Positions 384 to 5,880 of a DNA stretch of 6,185 nucleotides are shown here, piece by piece. Position 1 is the first letter of the stretch; each line of letters begins with the position of its first letter. The notes below the pieces were generated by a model. It did no database searches. It was not told the DNA's origin and saw only the letters and a list, made by a program, of their open reading frames with translations. The DNA is taken from IMG/VR virus record IMGVR_UViG_2778261570_000026; one strand, 5' to 3'. The translations under genes were made by a program, and so were the position numbers. Origin of the DNA: a virus. Taxonomy: Duplodnaviria > Heunggongvirae > Uroviricota > Caudoviricetes.

Positions 384-1795
384 AACTGGCACCGAACTTA
401 AAAAAACAGCCACACGACAAAATGACCGAAGTCATTATTTTTGCGGGTAGTGATGCCTGGGCGCACGCGAAACAGTGGCAGGAACAGGACGGACGACTTG
501 CTGGCGACAACGTGCCACCTGTATGGCTTGGAGACAGCCAGCTTGACGAACTGGCAGACCTGAAAATCATCGACGATGGTCGCTATTGTGTCCGGCTGTA
601 CAAGGCAGGCCACATCAAGCCGTCAAATATTAATGCCATCGGGCAAAAACTGGCGGCGGCAGGTGTACGGGATGCGAATTATTACCCTGAGGGAATGCAC
701 AGCCAGAAGCTGGAGAACTGGCACGACTACCTGCAACGGATCCGCGAACAGGCAGAGCGCGGGGAAATTCTTACTGACGAGCAATACAGCCAGCGAAAAA
801 CCACGCTACCAATGAGTATTGGATCTGCAGGGTACGACACACAGCTTGATTATGTCGTTAAGGGCGTGATTCCGGCTAATTCATTGTGCAGCACATACGG
901 CGCGAGCGGTTCCTATAAATCGTTCCTCGCGTGTTCCTGGGCGTGTCATGTTGCCACGGGGCGCCACTGGGGAGGCCGCAGGGTTGCGCATGGTTCGGTG
1001 ATGTATGTCGTCGGTGAAGGGGGGATAGGTGTCCCCCGTCGTATCAAGGCATGGGAAATCGTTAATGATAAACGGGTGGAAAATCTGTACCTGGTAAATC
1101 GCCCGATTTTTCCGGCGGTCCCGCTTGATGTTGATGAGATGGTCATCGCTTCCCGTCAGGTTGAACGGGAAACGGGTAAACCGGTACGCATGATTATTCT
1201 GGATACGCTGGCGCGTTGCTTTGGCGGTAATGATGAAAATGACGCGCGGGATATGGGGGCGTTTATCCGTGGATGTGACGAACTGAAACGACGCACAGGG
1301 GCCACGGTACTGGTGGTTCACCATTCCGGCAAGGATGAAACAAAGGGGGCGCGTGGTTCCAGTGCATTTCGTGCATCTCTGGACGCTGAATACCGTATTC
1401 GCCGTGAAGGTGCGGACAGTGAAGCCCTGGTTATCTCCTGCACCAAAATGAAGGATGCGGAGGAACTGAAAGAGGCTGCATATGATTTACGCGTGGTGGA
1501 GCTTTTTACCGACACTGACGGGGAGTTAATCACGTCGCTGGTGGTTGTGGATAAGCCGCGCCCACCTGTTGAACTGGAACGCATCGAGGAAGCCGGGAAC
1601 AAGACGGAGAATCACGCCGCGCTATGGGGCTGTATCCGTTCACGCACACAGCGCGGCGATAAATGCACTATCCCGTTGTTGCGTGATGATATGAAAAAGC
1701 TGGGGTATGAGATGAAACACTTCCGGCGCTGGCTGTACAAGCTGGAAGGTGATGGCGTTATTGCTATTGACGGTGATGACGTGCGCCCACTGTAA
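380..1795 (+). CDS. Replication initiator/helicase-type protein: RepA-like RecA-fold P-loop NTPase (AAA_25-like) with a ~140-aa N-terminal domain
   Basis: 471-aa ORF. C-terminal half carries a P-loop-like segment (TYGASGSYKSF), a Walker-B-like hydrophobic strand ending in Asp (RMIILDTLA) and a VVHHSGKD motif, matching the pattern of RSF1010-RepA/AAA_25-type replicative NTPases in phages and plasmids. An iteron array begins at its stop codon. Family assignment is from motif reading only. Confidence 0.75.
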   Translation: MKLAPNLKKQPHDKMTEVIIFAGSDAWAHAKQWQEQDGRLAGDNVPPVWLGDSQLDELADLKIIDDGRYCVRLYKAGHIKPSNINAIGQKLAAAGVRDANYYPEGMHSQKLENWHDYLQRIREQAERGEILTDEQYSQRKTTLPMSIGSAGYDTQLDYVVKGVIPANSLCSTYGASGSYKSFLACSWACHVATGRHWGGRRVAHGSVMYVVGEGGIGVPRRIKAWEIVNDKRVENLYLVNRPIFPAVPLDVDEMVIASRQVERETGKPVRMIILDTLARCFGGNDENDARDMGAFIRGCDELKRRTGATVLVVHHSGKDETKGARGSSAFRASLDAEYRIRREGADSEALVISCTKMKDAEELKEAAYDLRVVELFTDTDGELITSLVVVDKPRPPVELERIEEAGNKTENHAALWGCIRSRTQRGDKCTIPLLRDDMKKLGYEMKHFRRWLYKLEGDGVIAIDGDDVRPL

Positions 1796-1990
1796 AAAGT
1801 GGGTAGTAAAAGTGGGGAGTGTGGGGAATTTAACAAAATTGAAACGCGATTCCCCACTTTCCCACCTGTATATACCCCAAAAAGTGGGGAGTAAAAAATA
1901 CATTGAAAAACATCACGTTAGAATCACAAAAAAAAGAAGTGGGGAGACGTTGGGTAATTTCAAAAAGTGGGTAGTAAAAGTGGGGAGCAG
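1794..1990. repeat. Iteron-type replication origin (candidate ori)
   Basis: Direct copies of AGTGGG(G/T)AG at 1798-1806, 1811-1819, 1883-1891, 1938-1946, 1966-1974 and 1979-1987, with degenerate copies at 1820-1828 and 1949-1957. One inverted copy (TTCCCCACT) at 1850-1858. A perfect 26-bp direct repeat (AAAAAGTGGGTAGTAAAAGTGGGGAG) at 1794-1819 and 1962-1987 bounds an A-rich stretch (about 1892-1937). Sits in the non-coding gap right after the rep gene. Confidence 0.7.
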
Positions 1991-1996
1991 TGAGGA

Positions 1997-2248
1997 ATGA
2001 CCAGAAAAACCAGAGATAAGACAGCGCCAAAATATCGCGCATTAGACATGACAGAGCACGCCTTAAAGGTGGCAATCAGAACGATAGACCGCCATGCCGG
2101 GGAAGGATACGCGAAAGCACATCCCGAACTGATAAGCGCATTCATGACCACAGCGGCGGCAAACTTTGCCACGCTGACCGAAAGGGAGATTGCCGAAGCG
2201 GAACAGGTGACAACCATCAACGTTAAAACCGGAGAGCATACAGCATGA
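1997..2248 (+). CDS. Hypothetical protein (83 aa), translationally coupled to ssb
   Basis: ATG at 1997 has GGGGAG at 1982-1987 upstream (9-nt spacer). Stop TGA (2246-2248) overlaps the ssb ATG (2245) in an ATGA junction. No recognisable family. Confidence 0.5.
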   Translation: MTRKTRDKTAPKYRALDMTEHALKVAIRTIDRHAGEGYAKAHPELISAFMTTAAANFATLTEREIAEAEQVTTINVKTGEHTA

Positions 2249-2667
2249 CAGCACAGATAGCGGCTTACGGGCGGCTGGTGGCTGACCCGCAGTTAAAGAC
2301 CACCAGCAAGGGAACACAAATGGCGATGGCGAGTATGGCGGTTCCCCTGCCGTGCAGCCAGGCCGATGACGGAACGGCGACGATGTGGTTATCCGTCCTG
2401 GCGTTTGGCAGACAGGCCGACGCACTGGCCAGACACCACAAAGGCGAACTGGTGAGCGTGGCGGGTAACATGCAGGTAAGCCAGTGGACAGGCCAGAACG
2501 GCGAAACGCGGCAGGGCTGGCAGGTTATCGCAGACAGCGTAATCAGTGCGCGAACGGCGCGACCGGGCGGCAAAAAAGGCCAGCAGGGCCAGGCTACTGA
2601 CGCACTGAACAGGGCAAAACAACAGGCGGGAAATGATGCCCCGTACGGGGATAACATATCGTTTTAA
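2245..2667 (+). CDS. ssb: Single-stranded DNA-binding protein (OB-fold SSB family)
   Basis: 140-aa protein that aligns by eye with the E. coli SSB OB-fold: GRLVADPQL vs GNLGQDPEV, WLSVLAFGRQAD vs WHRVVLFGKLAE, KGELVSVAGNMQVSQWTGQNGETRQ vs [24 protein letters not shown]. Short Gly/Gln-rich tail ending in DNISF, resembling the SSB C-terminal DDDIPF tip. Confidence 0.8.
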   Translation: MTAQIAAYGRLVADPQLKTTSKGTQMAMASMAVPLPCSQADDGTATMWLSVLAFGRQADALARHHKGELVSVAGNMQVSQWTGQNGETRQGWQVIADSVISARTARPGGKKGQQGQATDALNRAKQQAGNDAPYGDNISF

Positions 2668-2681
2668 GCAACGAGTGACAG

Positions 2682-2707
2682 AAGCCGGGATTTTTCCCGG
2701 CTTTTTT
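2682..2707 (+). terminator. Rho-independent terminator after ssb
   Basis: Stem AGCCGGGA (2683-2690) pairs with TCCCGGCT (2695-2702) around a TTTT loop, followed by a T-run (2702-2707). Confidence 0.7.
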
Positions 2708-2713
2708 GTGCGC

Positions 2714-2746
2714 AAAAAAATCCCCCGGGATGAGGTTCCGGGGGAT
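2714..2746 (-). terminator. Second hairpin oriented as a minus-strand intrinsic terminator (together with 2682-2707 forms a bidirectional terminator)
   Basis: 9-bp inverted repeat ATCCCCCGG (2720-2728) / CCGGGGGAT (2738-2746). The A7 run at 2714-2720 is a U-run after the stem only when read on the minus strand. Confidence 0.4.
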
Positions 2747-2807
2747 TTCATACCGCTAACGTGATTAATGCTGAATGACTCTGTGGTACAAGGATTAAAA
2801 CCACGGC

Positions 2808-2875
2808 ATGATGATTTCATGATTTGCAATAACAGTCAATTGCATTGCAAAAAATGCAATGATGATTAAAATCAT
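2808..2875 (+). promoter_or_regulatory. Candidate sigma70 promoter of the capsid operon overlapped by operator-like dyads
   Basis: -35 TTGCAA (2845-2850), 16-bp spacer, -10 TAAAAT (2867-2872). Inverted repeat ATTGCATT (2839-2846) / AATGCAAT (2853-2860) spans the -35; palindrome ATGATT-AA-AATCAT (2862-2875) covers the -10. Further TTGCAAT (2824-2830) and ATGATTT copies (2811-2817, 2819-2825) lie upstream. Promoter call is by consensus matching only. Confidence 0.4.
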
Positions 2876-2924
2876 GGCTGACTTTTCGTTATGTTTGTTT
2901 TTTAGTCAAAGAGGAATCTCATTT

Positions 2925-3131
2925 ATGGGAACACAGAAGCCGGGCGGTGTATCCGTGTACATCAGCCCCGATATTATCGCCGCACTTAATGCGCGCTTTG
3001 AGGAGAACGCAGAGGCAGGGAAAAAAGTCGGCCTTGATCCGTTGTGCATGGTGAAGCCGTCAGTCGGCTGGATGGTACGCAGTCATTTACGCGCTGCGCT
3101 TGGCATGAATCAGCCTCATGGGGGTGAGTAA
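2925..3131 (+). CDS. Small protein (68 aa) directly upstream of and coupled to the major capsid gene; function unknown
   Basis: Strong RBS AAAGAGGAA (2909-2917), 7-8 nt before ATG 2925. The ORF-track start at 2859 would place the N-terminus inside the predicted promoter and has no RBS. Stop TAA (3129-3131) overlaps the ATG of the capsid gene (TAATG). Confidence 0.55.
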   Translation: MGTQKPGGVSVYISPDIIAALNARFEENAEAGKKVGLDPLCMVKPSVGWMVRSHLRAALGMNQPHGGE

Positions 3132-4186
3132 TGACAGCGCTGCAACTGGTAAGCACACCAACGCTACTGAAAAATATCGGGCGCGAAGATGTGCCGGAAT
3201 TTAAATTTAATCCGCTCTTTACGACGCTGTTTTTTCCGAATATCGCCACGTTCAGTACGCGAGATATTGCGCTTGATACGCTGGACATTGAAAACGTGGT
3301 CATGAGTCCGTTTTGTTCACCAATGTCAGGCAGTCAGGTTATGCGTGACAAAGGTTTTACAACGAACACTTTCACGCCGGGTTATATGAAGCCCAAACAC
3401 GTTATTGATCCCACTAAAACAATCATGCGCATGGCTGGAGAACAGATCGGCAATGGTCAGTCTTCCCCGGCACTACGCCGCGTAAAAATGGTTCACGACA
3501 GCCAGAAAAAACAGCTTGCTGCCATCAAAGCGCGTGTTGAATGGCTGGCGGTCAATGCCATCACAACAGGCCGTAACGTTATCGAAGGCGAAGGCATTGA
3601 GCGTTATGAAATTGACTGGGGATTACCCGCAACCAATCACATTACACAGGCTGGCGGGAAAGAATGGTCAAAACAGGATGCCGAGACGTTTGATCCGATA
3701 AGCGACATTGAGGCTTACGCTGATTTTTCCGAAGGTACGGTAAATATTATCGTCATGGGTGGCGAAGCCTGGCGTATTTTGCGCTCGTTCCGTCGATTCC
3801 GCGAACTCCTGGACACCCGCCGCGGTTCAAACTCGTCACTTGAACTTGCGCTAAAAGATTTGGGCGGTGTTGTCAGCTTCAAGGGGTATCTCGGTGATGT
3901 GGCGCTCGTGGTTTATTCCGGTCGTTATGACGACGAAAACGGGCAGCAGCAATATTTCCTGAAACAAAACATGATGGTTTTCGGCAATACCGAAAATAAA
4001 GGTCTTGTTGCTTATGGTGCCATCATGGATCAGGACGCGGCACGCGAGGGATTTTCTGAGGGGATGTACTACCCGAAAAATTATATCGTACCGGGCGATC
4101 CGGCGATTGAATACGTGCAGACGCACAGCGCCCCGCAGCCAGTACCCGTGGATATTGGTCGCTTTGTTACCGTCGAAGTGAAATAA
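3131..4186 (+). CDS. Major capsid protein, phage lambda gpE family
   Basis: 351-aa protein with long collinear blocks matching lambda gpE as I remember it: KFKF(N/D)PLF, (E/T)FTPGY(V/M)KPKH, ITQ(S/A)GG(T/K)EWSK, DIEAYA, VNIIV, DTRRGSNS, VS(Y/F)KG, GDVA(I/L)VVYSG, YPKN, GDPA. Length is also close to gpE (341 aa). SD-like GGGGGTGA lies just upstream. Confidence 0.9.
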   Translation: MTALQLVSTPTLLKNIGREDVPEFKFNPLFTTLFFPNIATFSTRDIALDTLDIENVVMSPFCSPMSGSQVMRDKGFTTNTFTPGYMKPKHVIDPTKTIMRMAGEQIGNGQSSPALRRVKMVHDSQKKQLAAIKARVEWLAVNAITTGRNVIEGEGIERYEIDWGLPATNHITQAGGKEWSKQDAETFDPISDIEAYADFSEGTVNIIVMGGEAWRILRSFRRFRELLDTRRGSNSSLELALKDLGGVVSFKGYLGDVALVVYSGRYDDENGQQQYFLKQNMMVFGNTENKGLVAYGAIMDQDAAREGFSEGMYYPKNYIVPGDPAIEYVQTHSAPQPVPVDIGRFVTVEVK

Positions 4187-4196
4187 AGGGGATCGT

Positions 4197-4526
4197 ATGC
4201 CAACACCTTACACGCAATTCCTTTCCGGCACGCAGGAACTGGTCAGCACGCTGGCCTGTTTTGCCAGTGCCGGAGAAATTAAAGCGAGAACTCCGCTGAT
4301 GCAGAACGGCGCGGGCCTGATGGTTGAGTGGGACGGTACACCCGGTAAGGCGGTGTATCTGACCATATCGGACATTAACACGGCCACAAAAAACCGCGCA
4401 CAGGTTTATAAGTGCGGGGTTTTTAATATCGATGAAATTAACTGGCCTGATACAGCGGACACGTTCGAGAAAAAAGTGTCGGCTTTTGTTGGTTCCGGTA
4501 TTTCCGTGCAGCCTTTAGGGCAATAA
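4197..4526 (+). CDS. Head decoration protein, lambda gpD-like
   Basis: 109 aa (lambda gpD is 110). Shares TPLM, WDGT, YK.G.F, WP and KK..AF.G..IS blocks in the same order as gpD. RBS AAGGGGA lies 4 nt before the ATG. Sits immediately downstream of the capsid gene. Confidence 0.7.
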   Translation: MPTPYTQFLSGTQELVSTLACFASAGEIKARTPLMQNGAGLMVEWDGTPGKAVYLTISDINTATKNRAQVYKCGVFNIDEINWPDTADTFEKKVSAFVGSGISVQPLGQ

Positions 4527-4540
4527 TTTTGTGGTGATTT

Positions 4541-4966
4541 ATGACTGAGAAAGCAAATTCAACCAGAGCATTGATCATGGCACTGCCTGAGGCGCAGAAA
4601 TACCCGACGCTTGCGGAAAATCTCGCAAATAATGGCGCATCACTGACAGAAGCCCGAACGGTGCTTACTGCAAAGGCTGAGAGTGATAAACAGCGCATAG
4701 AGGGTATCAAGGCGTTACCGCTGGCATCAAAATACCCTGAGTTCACCAGTAAGCTGATTGAGTGTGGTTCTGAAGTAATGACAGTAACCTATGCACAAAC
4801 GTTACTGGCTGCCGTGGATGCCCAGGCAATGATGCAGGAAAAGAAAACGGCTTTTCTGTTTGATGCGTACATGGAAAAGCACAGCCCGAAATGTGTTGGA
4901 CCAGCAGCCGGTGATGGCAACGCCGGACTGACCGAAGATGAAAAGCTGTTGCTGTCTGTTAAGTAA
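4541..4966 (+). CDS. Hypothetical protein (141 aa) with an internal tandem duplication; last gene of the capsid operon
   Basis: Co-directional, tightly packed after the gpD-like gene and followed by a terminator. Contains two related ~33-aa modules (LPEAQKYPTLAENLANNGASLTEARTVL and LPLASKYPEFTSKLIECGSEVMTVTYAQTLL). No recognisable family. Confidence 0.6.
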   Translation: MTEKANSTRALIMALPEAQKYPTLAENLANNGASLTEARTVLTAKAESDKQRIEGIKALPLASKYPEFTSKLIECGSEVMTVTYAQTLLAAVDAQAMMQEKKTAFLFDAYMEKHSPKCVGPAAGDGNAGLTEDEKLLLSVK

Positions 4967-4980
4967 CTGAAATGAACGTT

Positions 4981-5012
4981 CGCGAGGTTGGCAAGGCCTC
5001 GCGATTTTTTTT
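4981..5012 (+). terminator. Rho-independent terminator closing the capsid operon
   Basis: Stem CGCGAGG (4981-4987) pairs with CCTCGCG (4997-5003) around a 9-nt loop, followed by a T8 run (5005-5012). Confidence 0.7.
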
Positions 5013-5022
5013 GTGTCCGGAA

Positions 5023-5128
5023 CGGTGGTGATCACCCCAATTTTCACGGGTCCTTTCCGGAACCTGAAACACCGGGGGTACGTGTACGCGCAAAAACGCG
5101 CTATTTATGACGCTTTCCGGGAAAGGGT
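5023..5128 (+). repeat. Left copy of an inverted repeat (~100 bp) upstream of the Nu1-like gene
   Basis: Core 5065-5110 equals the reverse complement of 5793-5838 at 40 of 46 positions with no gap, including a perfect 17-mer (5086-5102 = reverse complement of 5801-5817). Weaker similarity extends to about 5023-5128. Contains the palindrome GGTGATCACC (5027-5036) and CTTTCCGG motifs (5053-5060, 5113-5120). Confidence 0.6.
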
Positions 5129-5177: not shown

Positions 5178-5618
5178 ATGAATAATAAAGATTGTTTTGT
5201 TAGTCAGCAGGAAATAGCAGAACATTTCAAGGTCAACAGAACCACTATTCGCGCATGGACCAAACAGGGCATGCCGTATCTTGATGCGGATCGCGGAAAG
5301 TCCGGCGGTTATCACATCGGACACACATTATTCTGGTGCATGGGTAAAAGTCATCTTGATGCTATTGAGTACCACGGAGAAACCAGCGCACTGGAAAAGA
5401 TTATGGTTGCCAGGTTGATTTCATCAGAGCGCGACGAGTATTTCAGTGAAGAAACAGAACAGCGATTTGATAATGGTCTGCAGATTTACGGGTACTCGCC
5501 GGAAGATGTGAGCAAGGCACGAAATAAAATGGCTGGCTTTCTGGCTGGGTGGCGTCATGCCGTAGCCGTTCGCCGTGAGCATCTGCAACAATCTGTAGTT
5601 ACAGAGCAGGAAAGCTAA
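5178..5618 (+). CDS. Nu1-like winged-HTH DNA-binding protein: candidate terminase small subunit or packaging-specificity factor
   Basis: 146 aa. The N-terminus (VSQQEIAEHFKVNRTTIRAWTKQGMPYL) closely parallels the lambda Nu1 DNA-binding N-terminus as remembered (KKQLADIFGASIRTIQNWQEQGMPV). The remainder is not recognisably Nu1-like and the protein is shorter than Nu1. No large terminase gene follows. Nu1-like HTHs also occur in small regulators, so the function is uncertain. Confidence 0.55.
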   Translation: MNNKDCFVSQQEIAEHFKVNRTTIRAWTKQGMPYLDADRGKSGGYHIGHTLFWCMGKSHLDAIEYHGETSALEKIMVARLISSERDEYFSEETEQRFDNGLQIYGYSPEDVSKARNKMAGFLAGWRHAVAVRREHLQQSVVTEQES

Positions 5619-5774: not shown

Positions 5775-5880
5775 CCACCCTTCCGAAAAATCTCATAAAC
5801 AGCGCGTTTTTGCGCGTCCCATGACCCCCGGTGTTTCATTTTCCAGGAAGGACCCGCCACAATTACGGCATTGTTTCCCA
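5775..5880 (-). repeat. Right copy (inverted orientation) of the repeat flanking the Nu1-like gene
   Basis: Reverse complement of 5793-5838 matches 5065-5110 at 40 of 46 positions. Flanking similarity is weaker (about 17 of 30 in the outer arm). Confidence 0.6.

Follow-up and report, generated by a model that had tools for sequence, protein, structure and literature searches.

A conserved promoter with two putative dyad operators in front of the capsid operon of EcCICFT073-type phage satellites

The window analyzed in this work, a DNA stretch of 6185 bp, is part of a PICI of the EcCICFT073 type, a phage satellite of E. coli. It is 95-98% identical to E. coli chromosomal islands, and it was assigned to this type because the gene order is the same in CFT073; Pfam and PHROG scans were concordant with the assignment. 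The island, which is adjoined by tRNA-Pro in a complete genome, carries in its first part an integrase, a small HTH regulator, Icd-like genes, DUF4222, a RepA-type helicase, and SSB, followed by genes for a 68-aa protein, a major capsid protein, a head decoration protein, a 141-aa protein, an HTH protein, and a 104-aa protein. The small regulator is annotated simply as an HTH protein and is of the AlpA type according to published work (PMC6092414, PMC6739421). In the island of CFT073, c1499 was described as a capsid homologue, c1500 as a decoration protein homologue, and c1503 as Rpp (PMC6092414, PMC6739421). Of 5,426 complete E. coli genomes, roughly 190-200 contain related elements, and islands of the EcCICFT073 type are model Gram-negative phage satellites. 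The following genes of the window are relevant here:

380-1795: AAA_25 helicase (Pfam/PHROG)
2245-2667: SSB (Pfam/PHROG)
2925..3131, plus strand: 68-aa protein, first gene of the operon and candidate autorepressor (phrog_3255; CFT073 c1498)
3131..4186, plus strand: major capsid protein of the lambda gpE family, c1499 homologue (Pfam Phage_cap_E, 2.9e-47)
4197..4526, plus strand: head decoration protein of the gpD family, c1500 homologue (Pfam HDPD; phrog_49)
4541..4966, plus strand: 141-aa protein, c1501 homologue (phrog_53, profile positions 500-577 of 583, E 1.6e-8)
5178-5618: Nu1-like or terminase-small-subunit-like HTH protein (Pfam/PHROG)

The stop codon of the 68-aa gene overlaps the start of the capsid gene (TAATG). 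The 141-aa protein, judged by its profile alignment, resembles the C-terminal (Nu3/scaffold-like) part of head maturation proteases. SSB and the 68-aa gene are separated by a gap of 257 bp, which contains the region of interest, and the transcription unit that begins there appears to be bounded by intrinsic terminators on both sides:

2682..2709, plus strand: terminator hairpin 1 (AAGCCGGGA/TCCCGGCTT) with 9-nt perfect arms and a T-run, 3' of the SSB gene
2718..2748: hairpin 2 (AAATCCCCCGG/CCGGGGGATTT) with 11-nt perfect arms, also recovered by folding
4980..5012, plus strand: strong intrinsic terminator ending the operon, a 10-pair stem followed by T8

Hairpin 2 is flanked by an A-run and T-rich sequence and is thus terminator-like in both directions. 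The fold of the segment 2668-2765, which includes both upstream hairpins, has an energy of -46.4 kcal/mol (z -5.1). One or two strong hairpins are found at the equivalent place in every lineage described below; their sequence differs and their presence is kept. Such hairpins should block transcription arriving from the AlpA-driven replication module, so that the operon would depend on a promoter of its own. A search of Rfam at a permissive threshold returned nothing but a sub-threshold match caused by the two terminator hairpins, and a known RNA element was rejected on this ground.

Downstream of the hairpins, the combination of a promoter scan, motif analysis, and column conservation yielded the following elements, of which the two 17-bp dyads are named O2 and O1:

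2783..2804: dyad GTGGT-N12-ACCAC, near -85
2814..2830: O2, upstream 17-bp dyad ATTTCA-tgatt-TGCAAT, putative operator, one mismatch to TTGCA-N5-TGCAA
2836..2840: conserved TCAAT between O2 and O1
2844..2860: O1, promoter-proximal 17-bp dyad ATTGCA-aaaaa-TGCAAT, putative operator, perfect match to TTGCA-N5-TGCAA
2845..2850, plus strand: candidate -35 hexamer TTGCAA (promoter scan), inside O1, followed by a 16-bp spacer
2862..2875: palindrome ATGATTAAAATCAT over the -10
2867..2872, plus strand: candidate -10 hexamer TAAAAT (promoter scan and conservation)
2908..2916, plus strand: ribosome-binding site AAAGAGGAA

From the position of the -10 hexamer, the transcription start is predicted near 2879, which places the center of O1 near -27 and that of O2 near -57. 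O1 thus covers the -35 hexamer together with the spacer, and O2 lies 30 bp upstream, i.e., three helical turns away on the same face of the helix. Judged from the sequence, this placement is the geometry of a repressor. The TCAAT element is in helical phase with the half-sites and may represent a fifth, degenerate subsite. Since the window contains fewer promoter-like sites than its shuffles, the promoter call by the scan alone is weak. Another promoter-like site, on the minus strand (2839-2811), was discarded, as there is nothing for it to transcribe and its hexamers are not conserved.

The clustering of the half-site is unusual for this sequence. The pentamers TTGCA and TGCAA start at 11 positions in the window, and six of these starts, including all three copies of TTGCA, fall within 40 bp; a comparable cluster was reached by one of 1000 dinucleotide shuffles of the window and by none of 2000 shuffles of the intergenic region. 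Apart from O1 and O2, neither the window nor the island portion of a 30-kb locus contains a match to TTGCA-N5-TGCAA. The initial annotation had described four TTGCAAT-type heptamers within about 40 bp, and these are indeed present at 2824-2830, 2839-2845, 2844-2850, and 2854-2860.

Equivalent regions were gathered from other E. coli islands, from IMG/VR contigs, and from loci in Salmonella, Edwardsiella, and unassigned assemblies where a homologue of the 68-aa protein is encoded, and were compared by alignments and by an anchored table comprising 36 distinct sequences from at least nine lineages. Scans of species-representative genomes found no relatives, and phage records gave no DNA match to the region. 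All lineages share a common layout: one or more terminators, O2, 13 nt, O1, 6 nt, the -10 hexamer, a leader, the ribosome-binding site (kept as AGTCAAAGAGGAAT in most lineages), and the small gene. The gap between O1 and the -10 is exactly 6 nt across lineages, and the centers of O1 and O2 are 30 bp apart, except for one lineage with 32 bp; the gap between the dyads is 15 nt instead of 13 in the Edwardsiella lineage. The O1 consensus is RTTGCR-N5-TGCAAY in all lineages, the window holding the perfect ATTGCA/TGCAAT palindrome, and the O2 consensus is ATTKCA-N5-TGMAAY (9 lineages). TTGC of the -35 is kept in all lineages, and the -10 conforms to TAWAAT, being TATAAT in most lineages and TAAAAT in the window. 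With TATAAT at -10 in most lineages and the -35 TTG always present, the promoter should fire unaided.

The information content is 1.6-1.7 bits per position in the half-sites and 1.70 in the -10 hexamer, as compared with about 1.0 in the spacers. Identity between lineages reaches 69-81% in the 61-bp core, 63-74% in the neighboring genes, and about 45% in the 80 bp upstream. The conservation of the left half of O1 is inseparable from its role as a -35 element. O2 is a perfect palindrome in two different spellings, ATTGCA..TGCAAT in the lineage L138 and ATTTCA..TGAAAT in L141, and this fits recognition by a symmetric protein.

The comparison also separates the conserved elements from several features that had been listed as operators on the basis of the window alone. 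The 8-bp inverted repeat ATTGCATT/AATGCAAT, which had been placed over the candidate -35, is present (2839-2846 / 2853-2860), but its left arm (2839-2843) is not conserved, and the repeat is offset by 5 bp from the truly conserved dyad, O1. The palindrome at 2862-2875 also exists and is conserved in part: its left portion with the hexamer, ATGATTAWAAT, is kept, while the right end varies among CAT, CAG, ATA, and TAT. Tandem copies of ATGATTT do occur at 2811-2817 and 2819-2825, but not as a repeat conserved across lineages; ATGATTT is nothing more than the left half of O2 together with its spacer. The dyad GTGGT-N12-ACCAC, likewise real in the window, has been either deleted or replaced in three close relatives (L001, L004, and L005) and does not occur in any other lineage; it was judged not to be functional. 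Along with the tandem ATGATTT copies and the left arm of the inverted repeat, it is probably lineage-specific or due to chance. The description of the region as operator-dense therefore stands in a reduced form, with two conserved dyads placed as repressor operators would be and without two of the operators that had been listed.

A leader terminator or attenuator was considered and rejected as a core feature, since the hairpin CTGGAT-N4-ATCCAG located after the -10 in CFT073 and Salmonella is absent in the window and in L138. The palindrome over the -10 also fits the FNR consensus with two mismatches; sites of this quality are common in the window and the right arm is not conserved, so that the meaning of this match is uncertain.

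The conserved segment coincides with an AT-rich trough of 30-37% G+C, as compared with 55-65% in the flanks. This raises the possibility that there is no dedicated binding protein and that conservation reflects the -35, UP-like, and curvature elements of an AT-rich promoter, which would be silenced by H-NS/StpA and relieved at 37 °C. Expression data for CFT073 bear on this possibility. In an RNA-seq comparison of 37 °C with 23 °C, the genes c1498-c1501 showed significant log2 fold changes of 2.24, 2.05, 1.45, and 1.17, and their neighbors were unchanged, with values of 0.24-0.36 for c1495-c1497, 0.33 for c1503, and 0.58 for c1505 (PMC12890032 supplement file 1). The edges of the responding block correspond to the positions of the predicted promoter and terminator. 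This shows that c1498-c1501 behave as a discrete regulated unit, apart from their neighbors and with no helper needed. Together with the conserved layout, it bears out the view of the initial annotation that the region is a promoter in front of the capsid operon.

A thermal rise is typical of horizontally acquired genes silenced by H-NS, and the rise of the homologous CFT073 operon, about 4-fold, agrees with such silencing. The pattern of conservation, however, is not one of general AT-richness: it is position-specific and comprises half-sites with G and C, dyad symmetry, and fixed spacing. Moreover, the spacer, for which sigma-70 needs no particular sequence, contains the right half of O1, and both halves of O2 change symmetrically between L141 and L138. 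Silencing in place of a dedicated binder is thus improbable, and H-NS may act alongside a specific repressor. We consider it likely that the segment is a promoter with dyad operators bound by a protein.

The only partner of the dyads that stays constant across lineages is the gene that follows. The 68-aa gene is located directly 3' of the promoter in every locus. Its family is small, with 11 representatives in 1.8 billion proteins, and homologues were absent from 50,697 phage records. Among the double-dyad matches counted in the collected IMG/VR loci, the small gene was present in 62 of the 63 with a correctly spaced -10 and in none of the 114 lacking such a -10; about 50 of these loci had been found by a pattern already requiring the -10 and the ribosome-binding site. 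A scan of IMG/VR with the dyads only returned many unrelated chance matches from environmental contigs, and the dyad pair is therefore diagnostic solely in combination with a correctly spaced -10; it also uncovered 13 new satellite loci, each of them with the small gene as well as the -10. The homologue that has diverged furthest, with 39% identity, is that of the lineage L149, and it is likewise encoded directly after the promoter. There the two dyads are kept 30 bp apart, and the downstream genes encode a head protein of a different family and a tail spike. On the sequences collected here, the 68-aa protein is thus found only in satellites and always with the dyads, even where the downstream cargo differs.

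The N-terminus of the 68-aa protein is invariant, GGV(S/T)VYISPDI; with its alternating pattern and the helix that comes next, it is similar to the strand and helix cap in ribbon-helix-helix proteins. The Pfam search gave no match above threshold; the sub-threshold matches to RHH_1 (E 0.15-0.2) and BrnA (E 0.017) were both aligned at the N-terminal strand and helix. A profile search of PDB returned nothing significant, and the best Foldseek match of the model, a VapB antitoxin, was not significant (E 1.8). Comparison by hhalign with manually entered reference sequences of Arc, Mnt, CopG, NikR, and ParD gave a probability of 1%. In the AlphaFold monomer (mean pLDDT 69), residues 8-14 are extended and helices span residues 15-34, 39-42, and 49-58; relative to a typical ribbon-helix-helix protein, helix 1 is longer, helix 2 is shorter, and a 12-residue insert lies between them. 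The model and the N-terminal pattern hint at a possible ribbon-helix-helix fold, although none of the profile and structure comparisons reached significance.

The locus of L149 also supplies an argument against the small protein as the binder. Its half-site is unchanged, although two residues of the strand that putatively face the DNA differ (Y to M and S to D), and a host factor would be the simpler explanation. A host candidate is CytR, binding of which to the half-sites would make the capsid operon respond to nucleoside availability. The reported forms of the CytR motif are TGCAA-N2-3-TTGCA, the palindrome TTGCAA, and AYGTGCAAC-N10-13-GTTRCATT, the last of which is optimal without CRP (PMC3454398). 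Four TGCAA/TTGCA half-sites are present, and in most lineages the O2 right half-site and the O1 left half-site combine to TGCAAC-N13-GTTGCR, which fits this CRP-independent optimum; constancy of the half-site during divergence of the small protein is what would be expected of a host factor.

In contrast, CytR operators are normally located between CRP sites, and none with up to three mismatches to TGTGA-N6-TCACA was found in 2700-2930, nor is the sequence upstream of O2 conserved. The close pairs are TTGCA-N5-TGCAA, the reverse of the order in natural CytR sites, and the spacing between the dyads in L138, 15, exceeds the reported 10-13. The udp, cdd, and deoC promoters of K-12 contain no dyad like ATTGCA-N5-TGCAAT with up to three mismatches. 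As in the CytR/CRP promoters deoP2, udp, and cdd, the region contains TTGCA/TGCAA pentamers, for which several spacings are tolerated in those promoters (PMC3454398); unlike in them, the array lies over the -35 and the spacer and not between activator sites. Taken together, control by CytR is very unlikely.

The dyads could also be bound by another trans-acting factor, either a regulator of the satellite (AlpA, PerC, or Rpp) or a helper protein, perhaps as an activator compensating for a weak -35. Activators that bind between the -35 and the -10 are known, and MotA of T4 and Lpa of P1 act near -30 or -22. With 3-4 of 6 matches the -35 is imperfect, and it is followed by a 16-bp spacer, as such activation would have it. 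Satellites are generally induced by helpers, and in EcCICFT073 the role of master activator falls to AlpA (PMC6092414). The initial annotation had proposed that the operon possibly responds to a helper phage and that the same dyads be sought elsewhere in the element or in helpers. At 0-1 mismatch, the dyad is absent from the proven helpers lambda and phi80, and the CI operators of phi80 are unrelated. Nor does it occur elsewhere in the island, not even in the promoter of alpA, which AlpA autoregulates, and this counts against AlpA, a factor that acts on its own promoter. The perC gene, located just upstream in CFT073, is missing in the lineage of the window, although the operators are the same, and the types of AlpA, primase, and Rpp vary between lineages while the half-sites remain constant.

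The temperature shift in expression of the CFT073 operon also occurs without helper induction. The proposed responsiveness to a helper thus gained no support, no link to a helper having been found, and an activator from the satellite or the helper is an unlikely explanation that nothing found here favors. Other phage-type and host-type controls were also rejected. No match to the LexA box CTGT-N8-ACAG with up to one mismatch occurs in 2700-2930. A lambdoid late promoter antiterminated by Q does not agree with the absence of the dyad in lambda and phi80, the unrelated pR' and Q site of phi80, or the lack of a stable leader terminator in the lineage of the window. A late promoter of the P2/P4 Ogr/Delta type (TGT-N12-ACA near -55) was discarded because the candidate dyad, GTGGT-N12-ACCAC, is located near -85 and has been lost by deletion in close relatives.

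The reading that best connects these data is autorepression by the 68-aa protein, and it has precedents. The operators of CopG and Arc overlap their promoters and consist of two inverted 4-bp boxes 5 bp apart, TGCA in the case of CopG, and the repressor gene is the first in its own operon (PMC2724298). Short inverted boxes about one helical turn apart that overlap a promoter are shared by the region with the cassettes of CopG, Arc, and Mnt, and O1 itself contains TGCA-N5-TGCA (TGCA-AAAAA-TGCA) over the -35. A close parallel is with CopG at Pcr of pMV158 (copG-repB), whose operator likewise overlaps the -35 and has as its core a 13-bp symmetric element formed by two TGCA boxes separated by 5 bp (PMC2724298). 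By way of additional subsites on a single helical face, the contacts of CopG extend over about 50 bp (PMC2724298), and here four or five phased subsites span 2814-2860. As with CopG, a small candidate regulator gene is the first in the operon.

The differences are that the central base pair is A:T and not the G:C of CopG, that the half-sites reach 6 bp (ATTGCA) and a second full dyad lies 30 bp upstream, that the downstream genes encode capsid proteins and not a replication initiator, and that neither sequence nor structure comparisons gave a significant match between the 68-aa protein and CopG. With Arc at Pant (and Mnt) in immI of P22, the region shares a small repressor, putative here, encoded by the first gene and the setting of a mobile element. 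The Arc operator lies between or over the -35 and -10, with inverted 4-bp boxes 5 bp apart that are bound by a dimer of dimers (PMC2724298); the Arc boxes, however, are TAGA, and Arc controls an antirepressor and not structural genes.

Among phage satellites, operon I of the SaPIs is a comparable case, as a separately controlled operon for morphogenesis and packaging that is repressed in the resting state. It is an operon for packaging and capsid remodelling controlled by LexA of the host, according to Ubeda 2007 as cited in PMC6739421; unlike it, the present region has no LexA box in 2700-2930.

On the evidence of conservation, the segment 2814-2872 is a real and previously undescribed promoter-operator cassette of a design that is itself familiar. 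From its architecture we infer protein binding at the dyads and propose the 68-aa protein as the most likely candidate for the binder. A sigma-70 promoter would drive the four genes encoding the 68-aa protein, the gpE-like capsid protein, the gpD-like decoration protein, and the Nu3-like protein. The 68-aa product would bind with one dimer per half-site, the half-sites being one helical turn apart; occupation of O1 by the protein would keep RNA polymerase off the promoter, and O2 would contribute cooperativity. By analogy with Arc and CopG, this complete mechanism of autorepression by the product of the first gene is a tentative proposal, with somewhat less than an even chance of being correct. 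A point against it is that negative autoregulation would not be the obvious choice for a gene with a product needed in bulk.

The consulted literature on PICIs describes no promoter or operator for the capsid and decoration genes. Interference with lambda persists when c1499 or c1500 is deleted, and transfer does not require the capsid genes (PMC6092414, PMC10111431). The defined promoter, its operators, a candidate regulator, and the hint of temperature control provide experimental handles on this insulated capsid unit, and a compact module of terminator, operator, promoter, and regulator could serve in engineered PICI delivery vehicles. An extension of the proposed mechanism, which we regard as unlikely, is that the 68-aa gene and the double operator form a portable, insulated cassette that fixes the amount of satellite morphogenetic proteins, is independent of AlpA and the helper, and responds to the body temperature of the host, with a 68-aa protein that possibly has a dual function. 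If this were true, the level of capsid protein would feed back on transcription, similarly to a toxin that co-represses with its antitoxin. The putative DNA-binding core of the 68-aa protein is conserved in all homologues, and a GLDPL loop and a C-terminal GGE tail are found only where a gpE-type capsid gene follows.

The operon's fourth gene, one of the features of the window given below, codes for a 141-aa protein whose similarity to profiles of head maturation proteases is limited to their C-terminal end:

1794-1987, 13-nt iteron present six times, directly after the helicase gene
4541-4966, gene for the 141-aa protein
5039-5120 and 5783-5864, arms of an 82-nt inverted repeat
5178-5618, Rpp-like winged-helix gene, between these arms

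In the profile search, the match of this protein to phrog_53 covered profile positions 500-577 of 583, the end that corresponds to the lambda Nu3 scaffold. Because the match is confined to this Nu3-like C-terminal part, the island may encode capsid, decoration, and scaffold proteins without a portal or protease. Within the 68-aa protein encoded by the first gene of the operon, the GLDPL loop (residues 36-40) and the C-terminal GGE (residues 66-68) never vary when the next gene encodes a gpE-type capsid protein, and both are lacking in the homologue from L149, the contig with the most divergent copy. Besides the core common to all members, the protein may thus have a further function that is tied to the capsid.

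L149 (region 710-4296) is a satellite-like contig with the same helicase type as the window, and it carries the same operator-plus-small-gene cassette. Downstream of the cassette are two tiny ORFs, a 315-aa protein weakly resembling another family of head proteins (phrog_617), and a tail spike; this gene content suggests that here the cassette expresses morphogenetic genes of another sort, suited to a helper of a different type. Several relatives, from Edwardsiella (L138) and Salmonella (L141/L142 and L150), are helper-embedded islands that fit the HE-PICI class (PMC10111431). Their insertion sites are in late genes of lambdoid prophages (portal, terminase large subunit, near FI), and the operator cassette is the same in these islands.

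Upstream of the operators, in CFT073-type and some Salmonella islands, the SSB gene is separated from the terminators by a gene for a PerC-family regulator. The regulator gene is missing from the window lineage (2668-2760 in the window versus 7613-7861 in the CFT073-type locus L002), which nevertheless retains the terminators and operators. Most other lineages also possess a hairpin, CTGGAT-N4-ATCCAG, which begins only a few bases from where the transcript is predicted to start and has a T-rich run after it (L002, about 8050-8075; equivalent positions in L141, L145, L147, and L150). Its stem can reach 10 bp in CFT073, and the hairpin is absent from both the window lineage and L138. Its role may be to protect the 5' end of the mRNA or to serve as a weak attenuator.

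The arms bracketing the Rpp-like gene are 79% complementary; the CFT073 gene is likewise bracketed (77 nt, 82%), and the repeat is absent from one Salmonella lineage. Such a repeat could delimit a module for packaging specificity that can be swapped or inverted, or it could be connected with the cos region of the island. The iterons, AAAAGTGGG(G/T)AG, are arranged as two symmetric clusters, which are the expected PICI replication origin. Analogous iterons, GTGAGGAG, are located in L149 immediately upstream of its operator cassette.
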